A stretch of 64,000 nucleotides of DNA from Octopus sinensis (lineage: Eukaryota). The notes beneath the pieces are model-generated. The model did no database searches and was not told the origin of the DNA. It saw nothing but the letters and a program-made list of their open reading frames with translations. Shown one piece after another: positions 2,991 to 59,349 of this stretch. The stretch's first letter is position 1. Every line of letters begins with the position of its first letter. The position numbers and the translations under genes were made by a program. The DNA is taken from NCBI RefSeq assembly GCF_006345805.1, contig NC_042997.1, forward strand, positions 124,372,001-124,436,000, read 5' to 3'.

Positions 2991-4014
2991 TATGCTTCCA
3001 CCTTGTCATTTCAATGGTGATTTCAGGAAAACCTGAAGCTTCTTTTCAGGAGGTTCAATGAAAGAGACATCTGAACATAAAGTGCCGGAACAAATGCCGC
3101 CAGTATTTGTCTGATGCTCTTACAAATTTCGCCCAATCGATTCGCCGTATTTTTAAACATTCACGCATATACATATTAATAGATACAAACGTATGTGTAT
3201 GCTACTTCAAACAAATACCCGGATTTCCTATTCACCAATAATGCAGATCTATTCAACATATTTTGTTCTTGCTTACAGGTTTCAAATTTACATCTCTTTA
3301 CCTACATTTTTACCAGGTCTGCTTCCCCATATTTGACCCGGAGGTGAAAAATAAAAAATTCAATGCCTGGCATATTCTTATACGTTTGTTTGTATTGATC
3401 GTCCTATTAGTATCACTTAAGGGTATGATTTGTTTTTTAAAAAATGGGGGATTTTATTGAATGTAAATAGTCTTCAAAACCTTTTATCCTGGAAAGCATT
3501 CGTGTTTTTAAATCGTTTTCTTTGACGATAAAACCAGTTTTCGTTCTACTGTTAGCTACAGCACAGAGAAAGTAAATATTACTCTCTGCTGTTTTTTAAT
3601 ACCGTATCGATCACTAAATTAGCCTTTTTTGTTTTGTTTTGTTTTTTGCCTGGGCTATTTCAATTAATCTGTCAAATATATTGCTGTCATCTTTAATTTC
3701 TACAAAACATATGAATGACATTTATTGTCAATAATTCTCCAGTTTTGAAATAGAAAATGGAATCTATAGAAAACCTTTTTTTGTGATGTCTACTTGAAAA
3801 GAATCAAAATATAGTTAAGCAAAGTATATTCTTATCATAATCTCTTTTCTTCACCTTATTATTATTTTGATTTATGTATTAATAAGACAATAATTAAAAC
3901 ACTAAAATCAAAGGAAAATTAGCTGCACATAAAATGCATTTCAAATGTGCACTGATAGACAATAGAAACTCCACGTACATTCATTTACAAAAACGCACAT
4001 ACACACACACACAC

Positions 4015-18825: not shown

Positions 18826-19140
18826 GAAGGTGCGTGGCTTAGTGGTTAAGGCATTCGACTCATGATTGGAAGATCGTGAGTTCAATTCCCAGCGAAAAGT
18901 TATGTCCTTGAGCAAGACACGTTATTTCACGTTGCTCCGGCCCACTCAGTTGGCAAAATGAATACTACCTATATTTCAAATGGCCGGCCTTGTCACACTG
19001 TGTCACGCTGAATCTCCCTAAGAACTACGTTAAAGGTATACATGTCTGTTGTGTGCTCAGTCACTTGCACGTTAATTTCACGAGCAAGCTGTTCTGTTGA
19101 TCATATCAGCTGGGACCCTCGTCATCGTAACCGACGGAGC
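18826..19140 (+). mobile_element. tRNA-derived SINE (type C)
   Basis: TGGCTTAGTGG A box, GAGTTCAATTCC B box, gtccttgagcaagacac central motif. Confidence 0.8.
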
Positions 19141-22689: not shown

Positions 22690-23310
22690 AAAGCTACTCT
22701 ATTCATTATTGTGATTCGATCTCCTATAGTTTTCTTCAATTACAGCAAAGACATCTTCCCGTCAGGAAACTGCAAGTCATAAAACTGGTACATCTTTTGT
22801 GGTCTACTGCTAATGAGACAGGGAAATATAAAGAGTTTGAAAACAAGGCATGTGGGGCTCTTTATAAAATGACAGGCTCTACAGTGGAGAAACTTGGAAA
22901 ATTATCAAGCTCAATTTACGATACAGAAAAGGATTTATTTGGAGTGTAACAGAATGTTGGATGCAGAGGGTTTGTTGGAAACGGTGTGAGACGGCTGTTA
23001 TCGTTAGGCCTAACTCATCGTAAAGTCAATACCATCATGACCGATATCCAAACTACAGTGGAGAAGGCTAGCCACTGGATTTGGTTAAAAAGAGACGATG
23101 AGCAATGGCTAGAAGAATATTGCGCTTTATTTGATAACCAGCTGATCTAGCAAGCGGGGCCGGTGCGCATTAATGCCGTCGGGAGGTAGGCCCCGAAACG
23201 GCGCGCATTCTCTCCTGATGACCCCATACACTTGCTGGCTTCCGGTATGCGGAGTTTTTGACTGGTAGCACTTGCATGTGCAAGTTGTTTGCAAGACACC
23301 AGTCGCACTA
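22690..23310 (+). mobile_element. Internally deleted HERO-like (RLE-type non-LTR) retrotransposon
   Basis: One frame reads LWSTANETGKYKEFENK...GSTVEKLGKLSSSIYDTEKDLFGV* then VGCRGFVGNGVRRLL...VEKASHWIWLKRDDEQW. These resemble HERO N-terminal and extreme C-terminal motifs (EVGCRGF; AS.WLWLKR). No RT domain; GC-rich structured 3' UTR. Confidence 0.7.
23147..23238 (+). ncRNA. Permuted hammerhead-like structured RNA in the HERO 3' UTR
   Basis: GCCG-TC (23175-80), GAAA-CGGC (23195-202), GGGAG/CTCTC pairing abutting CTGATGA (23215-21), outer helix CTAGCAAG/CTTGCTGG. Confidence 0.5.
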
Positions 23311-23644
23311 TTGTTTCCCACTCTTCTTTAGTCACAAATGTTTCTGCTTTTTTGTCGTGTCTTCCTATATTCTTTCTTCATTGTGTCTTGCTTATCCAAC
23401 CAATGTTTCCTCATTCCGTCACCCTTGCTGCGTGTAACCTCCTAGATCCTGCACTAACTCTTTACATAATTATGAGAGAAGTATCGCTCTCTGGAATTCT
23501 CCCACCATTTTTTTCCTTTTTTCTTTTTTTTTTTGCTCCAGACACCATTCAAAATTATCAATCCGCATATTGATAGCGTCGATGTGAAAGGAGCTGAAAT
23601 TGTCATGTACATTACGCCTTCATCTCGAGGGTAAGTAATCAAAC

Positions 23645-24038
23645 GGAAGGCGGTGAGCTGGCAGAATCTTTGCAAGCCGAGCGATATGCTTAGCGGTATT
23701 TCGTCTGCCGTTACGTTCTGAGTTCAAATTCCGCCGAGGCCGACTTTGCTTTTCATCCTTTCGGGGTCGATAAATTAAGTACCAGTTACACACTGGGGTC
23801 GATGTAATCGACTTAATCAGTTTGTCCTCTCTATGTTTAGCCACTTGTGAGTAGTAAAGAAATAGGTATTTGGTCTGCCGCTACGTTCTGAGTTCAAATT
23901 CTGCCGAGGTCGACTTTGCCTTTCATCCTTTCGGGGTCGATAAATTAAGTACCAGTCACGCACTGGGGTCGATGTAATCTACTTAATCCGTTTGTCTGTC
24001 CCCTCTGTGTTTAGCTCCCTGTGGGTAGTAAAGAAATA
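23645..24038 (+). mobile_element. Dimeric type B SINE with 15-bp TSD
   Basis: tRNA head GGCGGTGAGCTGGCAGAATC plus two tandem bodies. TSD GGTAAGTAATCAAAC at 23630-23644 and 24039-24053. Confidence 0.92.
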
Positions 24039-52471: not shown

Positions 52472-52558
<87 letters not shown>

Positions 52559-52564
<6 letters not shown>

Positions 52565-53600
52565 GTTAAAAAAACACAAACTGGGACAAGAACGTGAAAC
52601 ATTTTGAAGACGACAAAAGAACACACAGACGGGACTTTCGAAGCTCTCAGTCATCAGTCAAGAACCAGATCATCTTCGCAATTTCGGCTGATTAATCTTG
52701 AGATTGCTCCAATCTGGGCAGCCCGCCAAGGGAAATCTAAGCGAATCGCATTAGATTCCTTGGAAGAAAACCTCGAAAGTATACAACACGGTGACGGAAA
52801 AACGGACGATGTTACTCGAAAAAAATTCAAAAATACGTAAAAACAATAACGATAGCACGGATAAGAATACAAAATAACGTAAAAACAATAATGACAAAAC
52901 CAGGACGTCAGGACAAGCGTCTTTCGACAGGACGAGTTGAGTATAGGCTGGCTGTGGAACAAGTGCCTGAAGGCAAACGGAGCACAAACAAATATGTGTT
53001 GTCACCCTGACTACTTGATGCGAAAAGGCAGTAGTAGCTAGCTGGTCACGTGAGCACAAAAAGGAGAAAGGGACAGATGAAGAGAGAAGAGAGAAGCAAG
53101 AGAGGGAAAGGGACAGGTCAAGTGGGGTGTAAGGTCTGAGAGGCAGAGAAATGTGGGAGAGGAGGGACGGAGGAAGAGAGAAAGAAAGAAGGGGAACAAG
53201 GGAGGAGAAGAAAAAGAGGGAAAGAGACAGAACAAGGGGAGTGCAAAGGGTGAAGGCAGAGAAAAGTAGGAGAGGGGGGGAAAAAGAGACAGTGTAGTCG
53301 AGTCGTACCAATGTTAGAGAGTAATATACTTACAGTATAGGGTCAAAAGGTAGGATACGTAGCCGCCGTGTATATATGTAAACGTTAAAAAAACACAAAC
53401 GGGGACAAGAACGTGAAACATTTTGAAGACGACAAAATATATATATATCTGTGACTTCTTCAGTGACACTTTTCGTTTTCGTGTGTGTTCTTGCTCCACG
53501 TACTCGATTCTCTGAGAATGGAGTAAGCGAAGCAAAAATACACACGAAAACAGAAAGTTGCTGAAGAAGTCACAGATGTGTGACGACAGATTACCGGACA
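52559..53600. mobile_element. (TA)n-flanked composite element with a 60-bp direct repeat and terminal palindrome (Penelope pLTR-like)
   Basis: Direct repeat 52559-52618 / 53378-53437; imperfect palindrome 53447-53577; hammerhead-like CTGAAGA-A-GTCACA GATG TGTGAC-GACA at 53561-53588. An inverted homolog of its left end lies at 55562-55705. Confidence 0.6.
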
Positions 53601-55561: not shown

Positions 55562-55705
55562 TATAAGATTAATCAGCCGAAATTACTACGATGATCCGGT
55601 TCTTGACGGAAGACTGAGGGCTTCGAATGTCCTGTCTGTGTTTGTTGTATCGTCTTCTAAGTTTTTATGCGTTCTTGTCTCAGTTTGTATTTTTCTACAT
55701 ATCAT
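55562..55705. mobile_element. Inverted homolog of 52570-52700
   Basis: agattaatcagccgaaatt...ttcttgac...gactgag.gcttcgaa.gtcc.gtctgtgt is the reverse complement of 52620-52700. Confidence 0.75.
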
Positions 55706-57819: not shown

Positions 57820-57967
57820 AGGGAGAATTCACAAAAAAACAAAAGATGAAGACAAGTGGTATCGACATCAAACAGATAGATGTGTTAGTATAACGCTCGG
57901 GAATTGCAAAAGTCTTTAACGTTTCGAGCCGTACGCTCTTCCAAGGAGAGAAAATATAGAATATGTA
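57820..57967 (-). mobile_element. Family A repeat interrupted by the RTE insertion (remainder at 59179-59265)
   Basis: gggagaattcacaaaaaaacaaaagatgaagacaagtgg...aacgtttcgagccgtacgctcttcc; the family tail (gtggctagcgatctatcat) resumes after the LINE. Confidence 0.72.
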
Positions 57968-59178
57968 ATGTTCGTCCTTCGGGTTCGAAGATGACCATTG
58001 ACATCATTTGGTGGAATTGCTGCTATGAGACCGGAGGTGGCTGGTGAGGCCAATCCGGGCAAGGAAGCCCCTCCCACAGGTGGGGCAGAAGTGGGTAGGG
58101 GCTGTGCTATTGGTGCAGGTGGCTCTGGCTCTGGCTTTCCGCATCTGGCATTTCTGTTCGGCTGACTGAATCCGTCTCTCCTAGGCTGTCTTTGCTCCTG
58201 TGGTGATTGCGCTGCGCCAGGATGAGCGGTCGGCAGCAAGTGTCTCCCAAGTCTCTGTGCCGATGGAGAAGTCTTTGAGAGAGACTTTGAGACTGTCCTT
58301 GAAGCGCTTCTTCTGCCCTCCGACTTTGCGTTTGCCCTGGCTGAGTTCACCGTAGAAGAGCTGTTTTGGGATGCGAGTGTCGGACATGCGGGAGACGTGG
58401 CCCGCCCATCTCAGCTGGGCCTTGCGCATGATCGTGATGGTGCTAGGGAGATCTGCCTGCTTCAGAACTTCCGTGTCTGGGACTTTGTCCTGCCAGCGGA
58501 TGTGAAGGAGGTTCCGAAGACACCTGAGTGGAAGTGGTTTATCTGGCGCTCGTGCCTTCGGTAAGCAGTCCACGTCTCGCAGCCGTATAGTAGGGTGGTA
58601 AGCACGACTGCCCGGTAGACTTTCAGCTTGGTGTTGAGGCTGATTCCTCTCCGCTCCCAGACTTTCTTTCGCAGTCTCCCAAACGCGCTGCTTGCCTTGG
58701 AGATTCTGTTGATGATTTCAGCATCTATGTTGGCATTGCAGGAAAGAGTGCTGCCCAGGTAGGTGAAGTTTTCCACCGCTCGTAGGATCCGTCCGTTCAC
58801 CTTTATCTGAGGCTCATGGTATTGTTTGCCGGGGGCTGGCTGAAACATCACTTCGGTTTTCTTGGCACTGATGGTGAGACCGAAGTTGTCACAGGCTGAT
58901 GAGAACCTGTCCATCCCGAGCTGCATCTCCTGCTCAACGATTGTATTAAGGGCGCAGTCGTCAGCAAAGAGAAAGTCTCTGACGACTGTCTCCCTTACCT
59001 TTGTGACGGCCTGCAATCTTCTGGAGTTGAAAAGTTTCCCGTCCGTCCTGTACTTGATGTCGATACCGGACTTGCAGTCCCTGAAGGCGTCGGACAGCAT
59101 TGCCGAGAACATGATGCTGAACAGTGTTGGGGCCAGGACACAGCCCTGCCTGACTCCGTTGGTCACCTGGAAGGCTTC
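57968..59178 (-). mobile_element. 5'-truncated RTE-clade LINE (RT C-terminal half + C2H2 finger) with TSD
   Basis: GVRQGCVLAPTLF, FLFADDCAL, FTYLGS, LLYGCETW, QLRWAGHVSRM, CPTC...LTSHLRSH; frameshift near 58530; 3' UTR gtcatcttcgaacccgaaggacgaac; TSD AGAATATGTA at 57958-57967 and 59179-59188. Confidence 0.96.
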
Positions 59179-59349
59179 AGAATATGTAGTGGCTAGCGAT
59201 CTATCATGGCGAAGGCCGGACAGAAGGTTCATACAGGAGATCTGGGGAGAAGGGGAGATAACAAAGTATAAACATATATATATGCTTTCGGTGCGAATGG
59301 TTTTGTTATACGGTGCTGTATTTTACAATCCTGTAAATAATAATAATAA

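Follow-up and report, generated by a model that had tools for sequence, protein, structure and literature searches.

A core-split hammerhead-like fold, predicted to self-cleave, in the 3′ UTR of HERO-type retrotransposons

A locus in the Octopus sinensis genome raises the question of whether DNA that holds every core base of a hammerhead ribozyme, in an order foreign to types I, II and III, encodes a working ribozyme, and of what such a ribozyme would do for the retrotransposon that carries it. A first-pass annotation of the window (the whole 64,000-nucleotide stretch analysed) had described a permuted, possibly pseudoknotted hammerhead-like RNA in the 3′ UTR of a HERO-like element.

The motif and its host element in the window

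All the segments that the annotation had named are present at the positions it gave, and the CUGANGA, GAAA and NUH core bases are complete in the window copy. The carrier is a 5′-shortened, internally deleted copy (22741-23298), in which an N-terminal remnant is fused to the 3′ part of the element through an internal deletion of about 2.7 kb; that 3′ part has 86% DNA identity to positions 3379-3740 of the longer copy L091. The features are as follows.

22741-22955, plus strand: remnant of the N-terminal ORF region, 76% identical to 476-716 of the 3.75-kb copy L091
22956-23123, plus strand: C-terminus of the HERO-type ORF, closing the restriction-like endonuclease region, about 90% amino acid identity to RT-carrying long copies
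23147-23154, plus strand: 5′ strand of the outer helix, the distal part of helix IIa (CTAGCAAG), pairing by sequence with 23231-23238 and kept in family copies
23156-23161, plus strand: GGGGCC, two G-runs fused by a deletion; intact copies have 20 extra nt (IIa strand, hairpin, IIb strand)
23164-23168, plus strand: 5′ strand of the interaction helix, assigned by sequence, with its partner at 23203-23207
23169-23174, plus strand: 6-nt bulge between interaction helix and stem III, the place of a k-turn-like motif in many relatives
23175-23185, plus strand: block S, stem III strand GCCGTC (23175-23180, with the GUC triplet) and stem I strand GGGAG (23181-23185)
After C23180, plus strand: predicted cut
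23189-23202, plus strand: block G, helix IIb 3′ strand GGCCCC (23189-23194), then GAAA and the stem III strand, GAAACGGC (23195-23202)
23203-23207, plus strand: 3′ strand of the interaction helix
23210-23221, plus strand: block C, stem I strand CTCTC and CTGATGA (CUGAUGA)
23222-23238, plus strand: helix IIa 3′ strand CCCC (23222-23225), a linker and the outer helix 3′ strand, CTTGCTGG (23231-23238)
23239-23298, plus strand: 3′ tail, in which two small hairpins are predicted and poly(A) is absent, its integrated end lying 118 nt past the predicted cut

Stems I and III pair in register with the core over 5 bp each (one G-U in stem I), the outer helix closes the domain, and a conventional stem II, which would set C against C, is absent from the window copy, all as first described. 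The blocks in this order, with at least 5 bp in both stems, occur at two sites in the window (23180 on the plus strand and 52702 on the minus strand), compared with 4 sites in 100 shuffled windows, and a chance match was rejected by the shuffle, cross-pairing and window-scan controls. The overall folding energy is ordinary (z 0.01), as computed by a program unable to draw crossing helices, and minimum-energy folds pair some of the same strands differently. A minus-strand ribozyme or a plain long hairpin was also rejected, as the pairs that covary are those of the junction model described below and minimum-energy folds cannot show crossing helices.

The GGGGCC strand had been read as having a choice between two partners. 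The strand and both candidate partners are there, but the either/or choice is the product of a 20-nt deletion, spanning between two GGGGCC repeats, and is gone in intact copies: exact-pattern counts give 869 intact starts against 9 copies with the deletion, and it is absent from all of 30 successive copies on contig C1. We therefore rejected the alternative pairing as a switch. If helix IIb forms in the window copy, CCCC at 23222-23225 is left without a partner, and having lost the hairpin and one strand, this copy is predicted from its sequence to be probably slow or dead; that it cleaves well is doubtful.

The repeat gives 2096-2798 search candidates in genome G000, and long copies of about 3.7 kb have a single ORF with a zinc finger, an RT domain (Pfam RVT_1, E 7e-19) and a C-terminal restriction-like nuclease region. 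This ORF contains CCHC and PD...ELTVP motifs, which we take to be a zinc knuckle and a PD-(D/E)XK-type nuclease, giving an arrangement of RT, C-terminal zinc knuckle and nuclease. A query with the C-terminal 344 residues returned 172 relatives, including fish, lancelet and bivalve proteins; no relative was found in viral contigs. Compared by eye, two of the 172, P0054 and P0059, nearly equal the printed HERO-1_BF (PMC7650587 supplement), and P0001 aligns to P0054 at 38-44%. On this pairwise likeness, judged by eye, we term the element HERO-type; the motif follows the end of its ORF, consistent with the placement first proposed, in the 3′ UTR of a HERO-like element. It shares with the HERO clade (HERO-1_BF, HEROTn) an RT and a restriction-like endonuclease in one ORF, and fish and lancelet relatives (PMC7650587, PMC9004415).

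Several features of this repeat landscape deserve a separate mention. Internally deleted units of 0.6-1.5 kb that keep both element ends were seen at L185, L186, L193, L194, L280 and L002 as well as in the window copy, and the two units of the L194 tandem carry different deletions. Loci L196-L204, L206 and L208-L211 (G000 C18 3.7-5.2 Mb and unplaced contigs) represent one tandem insertion amplified at least 14 times, copied with its flank inside a duplicated region. Elsewhere in the window, 23640-24000 contains two or more adjacent copies of a SINE-like repeat, which we take to resemble Nin-domain SINEs, 57916-59322 on the minus strand is the broken RT ORF of another retroelement (Pfam RVT_1, E 4.6e-11), and a weak tRNA match (30.1 bits) at 18833-18894 is possibly a SINE head.

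The intact fold and its place among hammerheads

At the site matching 23156-23161, intact copies have two G-runs with a 5-bp hairpin between them. The first G-run pairs with the CCCC after CUGAUGA to form helix IIa, and the second pairs with the GGCCCC before GAAA to form helix IIb, so that the core contains a perfect four-way junction formed by IIa, hairpin and IIb. The leading G of the IIb strand occupies the place of G10.1, which means that at the position beside GAAA where G10.1-C11.1 closes stem II the G comes from an upstream strand.

The annotation had pinned its reading on covariation and a conserved core order among relatives, and both are found. We scanned metagenome contigs and took the best 80 of 309 relatives (30-54% protein identity), of which 11 ended too soon, leaving 69 assessable; the counts on relatives that follow all belong to these best 80. 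The core with both stems in register is present in 50 of the 69, and 46 of these 50 have at least 4 bp in both stems, compared with 30 of 5000 shuffles. When the triplet was left unconstrained and the best site taken in 47 distinct sequences, U16.1 was found in all 47 and G at 16.2 in 44, position 17 was C, U or A and never G, and position 7 was any base; these preferences are the established hammerhead rules. A perfect junction, defined as IIa, hairpin and IIb of at least 4 bp each with zero unpaired bases between them, is present in 35 of the 50 relatives, against 13 of 1000 shuffles (1.3%) and 94 of 2444 cross-pairings.

Among the 34 distinct relatives with the junction, the base opposite the last base before GAAA is G without exception (29 G-C, 5 G-U), and between three and six kinds of base pair occur at most helix positions. 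A MAFFT alignment of 32 of the 34, which is biased towards the junction because its members were picked for it and cut at their ends, has 88.5% of cells paired, against 62.3% when shuffled and 32-48% when slid; 20 of its 22 pairs vary on both sides, and every helix has compensatory changes. An ordinary stem II, with or without one extra base, was rejected, as its first pair is canonical in only 4 of the 34, while later positions are canonical in 17-21 of the 34 and patternless. Two further counts stand without a null: an interaction helix of at least 4 bp, formed by the segment that follows IIb and the one that precedes stem I, in 34 of 34, and a k-turn-like pattern between this helix and stem III in 31 of the 47 distinct sequences. 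The kink-turn consensus is a 3-nt bulge followed by tandem G-A pairs adjoining a canonical helix; the G000 family has its 6-nt bulge at this place, without a k-turn-like pattern.

A pseudoknot, a four-way junction and a dimer had been offered together as possible architectures. The first two are upheld by the core, stems and crossing helices of the relatives, but a dimer has no support in the G000 family. A self-complementary hexamer does lie in the junction hairpin loop of 22 of the 34 junction relatives (15.5% in loop shuffles), of four different kinds, all in long hairpins; it is found in none of 8 short hairpins and nowhere in the G000 family. Such loops might let two ribozymes of one tandem transcript kiss.

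The strict junction test failed in 15 of the 50 relatives, some of them cut short or decayed; three related loci, L159, L166 and L170, have the core and stems, but what separates their IIa strand from the IIb strand seems to be an insert of greater length or of another kind. The 19 relatives without a scored core comprise 7 that are decayed by eye, 1 cut short, 4 traceless and 7 that form one group (support 84 in a quick protein tree). This group (L103, L104, L120, L122, L132, L155 and L177) lacks the motif and has no Rfam match, and three of its members have GGATTA-rich repeats downstream of the ORF. The motif itself lies on both deep sides of the same quick tree. Taken together, these comparisons describe a strongly covarying hammerhead variant that appears clade-wide in HERO-type elements. 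We are highly confident that the conserved fold is real, and we consider it very likely, judging from sequence, that the intact form cleaves.

Regarding its class, the order S-G-C matches none of types I-III, whose circular block order is C-G-S, as had been claimed, but that order has itself been published as type SGC (HRIMA-1 and variants; Eckert et al. 2023, PMC10085705). As described there, SGC ribozymes have a non-circular block order, cleave at 0.007-0.19 per minute and come from metatranscriptomes only, with none from the genomes of known organisms. The HERO-type fold resembles them in its S-G-C order, complete core bases, three crossing core helices, short linker between stems I and II, and an extra helix tying these stems together. 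In SGC ribozymes, however, the stem II strand directly follows CUGANGA, whereas the HERO-type strand lies upstream of the cut site; in addition, the HERO-type fold has a four-way junction inserted after A9, its extra helix is continuous with stem III across the bulge or k-turn, and it resides in an autonomous retrotransposon. Eckert et al. assume that CUGANGA and its stem II strand are inseparable, and their search patterns require it (PMC10085705). No Rfam match was found at the motif or in sets of 8 and 14 loci.

In the fold that we propose, helix IIb would stack under the core as stem II with its first base as G10.1, helix IIa and the hairpin would bridge the break after A9, and the bulge or k-turn would bend stem III back so that the interaction helix could then tie stems I and II. 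It could be pictured as an SGC ribozyme whose ends were joined to make a ring that was then cut open between A9 and G10.1, IIa and the hairpin sealing the new ends. So modelled, the HERO-type fold is outside the six published hammerhead permutations. We would liken it to an SGC hammerhead in its working, yet do not file it as a member because stem II formation, one defining feature, fails. We know of no precedent for a hammerhead core with a strand break after A9, and therefore activity cannot be inferred from the SGC ribozymes.

The second S-G-C site in the window belongs to an unrelated repeat, represented by two features.

52635-52723, minus strand: second motif, S-G-C order with an upstream stem II strand, predicted cut after 52702, within a non-coding repeat unrelated to the HERO-type element
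55565-55690, plus strand: diverged copy (81%) of the second repeat, 5′-truncated within 2 nt of the predicted cut

This repeat (52552-53437, minus strand) is young, non-coding, about 810 nt long and Penelope- or retrozyme-like, with 3508 candidates, partial tandems and (TA)n flanks. Its upstream strand pairs before GAAA, the interaction helix is present, and between its subfamilies stem III has changed in a compensatory way and position 7 differs; both have a TTCGAA palindrome after CUGANGA. A test for copies starting at the predicted cut gave 248 matches beside 3624 ordinary ones; 24 of 30 inspected matches are 5′ truncations at that point, and about 200 copies start there. The control four bases upstream of the cut gave 26 matches. 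The control at −3 gave 719, of which 91 begin with G and 3 with T among the first 100 listed, the G starts being probably a subfamily variant, and the control at +4 gave 274, mostly G and confounded by probable variants. Because these last two are confounded, the peak at the cut is better shown against upstream than downstream positions, and the T at the cut may belong to the (TA)n flank. The pile-up of 5′ ends is indirect evidence that such a core would cut in cells. Naiad elements have GAAA 35-50 nt from CUGANGA on either side (PMC8557442), and these half-core motifs may be of the core-split kind.

Copy ends, tandem insertions and the RNA template

Cleavage had been suggested to define the 3′ end of the element RNA. 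We collected 85 distinct copy ends, chosen by tail, and they lie about 118 nt past the site, at that point or within a few bases of it; they are ragged, without poly(A), 38 share the most frequent end point, and 34 extend by 1-5 bases into what comes next in tandems. The 3′ UTRs of 30 loci selected by ORF end likewise gave no sign of an end at the triplet.

Head-to-tail insertions of more than unit length, with the ribozyme motif in each unit, are present. The exact 3′-to-5′ junction occurs at 27 places, representing 13 independent events, with upstream pieces of 28-983 nt. Fifteen independent copies extend into the 5′ UTR; in 11 of them a partial copy precedes the junction, another 2 begin 6-7 nt ahead of it, the last 2 break off within the UTR, and not one has its start exactly at the junction. 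Among 25 metagenome loci with at least 600 nt downstream, 8 enter the ORF of a next copy, in short-read assemblies of repeats. A pattern for copies that begin at the cut, preceded by a flanking A or G, returned 6 informative matches alongside 503 ordinary ones, and since all 6 continue upstream, no copies stopping at the cut were found by this test. The lack of starts at either the junction or the cut site indicates a template continuous across both. At L194, positions 616-703 precede the junction, an arrangement that requires either a second pass or an almost complete dimer; no full dimer was found among the loci examined. When 12 tandems were compared, the two units were mutual closest relatives in 4, which share 2-4 rare variants, closer than the panel median in 4, and not closer in the remaining 4; the units of L091 are 0.3% apart, compared with 2.5% or more to others. 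Contigs of 4 presumed-RNA runs span the stretch and are uninformative on ends and strand.

We lean slightly towards the view that the ribozyme cuts head-to-tail read-through RNA to unit lengths, whose ends are rejoined or held as a circle for reverse transcription; the circle itself we regard as evenly balanced. Two cuts would free a 3.7-kb monomer from the read-through RNA, its 5′ end carrying GAAA and CUGANGA and its 3′ end the cut site, and these ends would rebuild the ribozyme to give a nicked or sealed circle. The element protein would prime within that circle, sometimes copying more than one turn. In this account the cut would keep a 3′-end role only as the end of the monomer. A unit-length circle copied for more than one turn has already been proposed for retrozymes (PMC7761336), in which circles have been demonstrated (PMC7761336, PMC11167929, PMC8557442, bioRxiv 10.64898/2026.07.22.740005). 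According to these sources, the hammerheads of Penelope-like elements and retrozymes are of type I or III, often minimal and dimeric; they are like the HERO-type motif in standing in the repeated end of a partial tandem, with internal priming, but their carriers have a GIY-YIG nuclease or no ORF, whereas the HERO-type element encodes a nuclease of restriction-like type and its ribozyme is large and permuted.

Partial tandems that cross both the junction and the cut site fit a circular RNA template. An uncut template would be just as compatible with the lack of stops at the cut site, and 4 of 12 tandems are no closer within their locus than to other copies; both points count against the circle. 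Genome data fit a sealed circle and an uncut multimer alike. Our model of the fold has each half stay on its own partner through four or five helices after cutting, so that a circle would require strand exchange. A Penelope-like element inserted in vitro without needing hammerhead cleavage, and none of the RNA reads stopped at the site (PMC11167929).

The main rival reading, which we consider rather unlikely, is that the ribozyme is active, but insertion proceeds by internal priming from uncut or once-cut linear read-through RNA, and the cut frees the RNA from host transcripts, aids translation or limits expression. The structural evidence applies to it equally, it accounts for the missing stop, uncut RNA was the main substrate for the Penelope-like element in vitro (PMC11167929), and 5′-end processing is the stated role of the ribozymes of R2 and other LINEs (PMC7761336). 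In R2, RTE and other LINEs, HDV-like and twister ribozymes mark the 5′ end of the element (PMC7761336); the HERO-type motif is similar in being a self-cleaving RNA motif, here by prediction, upstream of the next ORF in a read-through transcript, but its site lies 118 nt short of the 3′ end, and insertions cross it. An upstream cut serving as the 5′ end would cap the upstream pieces at 118 nt, a length that 11 of the 13 independent ones exceed and none has. A linear template of one partial and one full unit would also shrink in each round, full dimers were absent from the loci examined, and the upstream piece at L194 is hard to obtain from it.

Two other readings are improbable. RT-binding structures of RLE elements sit in the 3′ UTR, as established for R2, and the placement of the fold would suit a binding or packaging signal for the element protein that has lost cutting. 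Such a signal would not be expected to keep the exact hammerhead rules at 30-54% protein identity, with no G at 17 and a free position 7, or to have a counterpart in a second repeat whose 5′ ends pile up at the predicted cut. Alternatively, the tandems might arise from new copies landing at the 5′ ends of those already present, or from template jumping from one linear RNA to another, with the ribozyme unrelated, an idea to which we give similarly little credence. The 3′ flanks that resemble the junction sequence over 1-5 nt in 34 of 85 copies could reflect a target preference, one metagenome contig has two distinct HERO-type families lying head to tail (L130 and L117, a real arrangement or an assembly join), and 4 of the 12 tandems are not close within their locus. 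However, the flank match spans a few bases only, the absence of copies beginning at the junction gives no sign of a defined RNA 5′ end there, and four tandems are mutual closest relatives with shared rare variants. The reading first proposed, in which the cut defines the RNA 3′ end, is very improbable: the 3′ UTR position and the lack of poly(A) would suit it, but copies end downstream with the whole ribozyme included, which contradicts the cut as a priming end.

Meaning for the HERO clade

Returning to the reading that we prefer, its full form joins a core-split, junction-bridged seventh hammerhead running through most of the HERO clade, rolling-circle reverse transcription of self-cleaved circular RNA, the same order in an unrelated repeat and a possible explanation of the Naiad half-cores; we hold this whole tentatively, at somewhat less than even. 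We found no account of HERO elements carrying a hammerhead, or of a four-way junction so placed, in the open-licence literature of PMC and bioRxiv, which included PMC3088659, PMC9004415, PMC7650587 and bioRxiv 10.64898/2026.07.22.740005. The supplement of PMC4640811 gave no match, and the terms 'Hero' and 'four-way' occur 0 times in that of PMC10085705. Neither a ribozyme nor a tandem structure is reported for HERO in the same open-licence literature, including PMC7650587 and PMC9004415.

In conclusion, the published scheme of six permutations presumes that CUGANGA and the stem II strand cannot be separated, and the HERO-type family, which separates them, is for that reason missed by standard searches. 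With it, a non-circular permutation would be known from animal genomes, in dozens of natural variants open to testing, and an RLE retrotransposon clade would gain a ribozyme inside its 3′ end. As the element encodes its own RT, it would also make circular templates and partial tandems testable in one and the same system.
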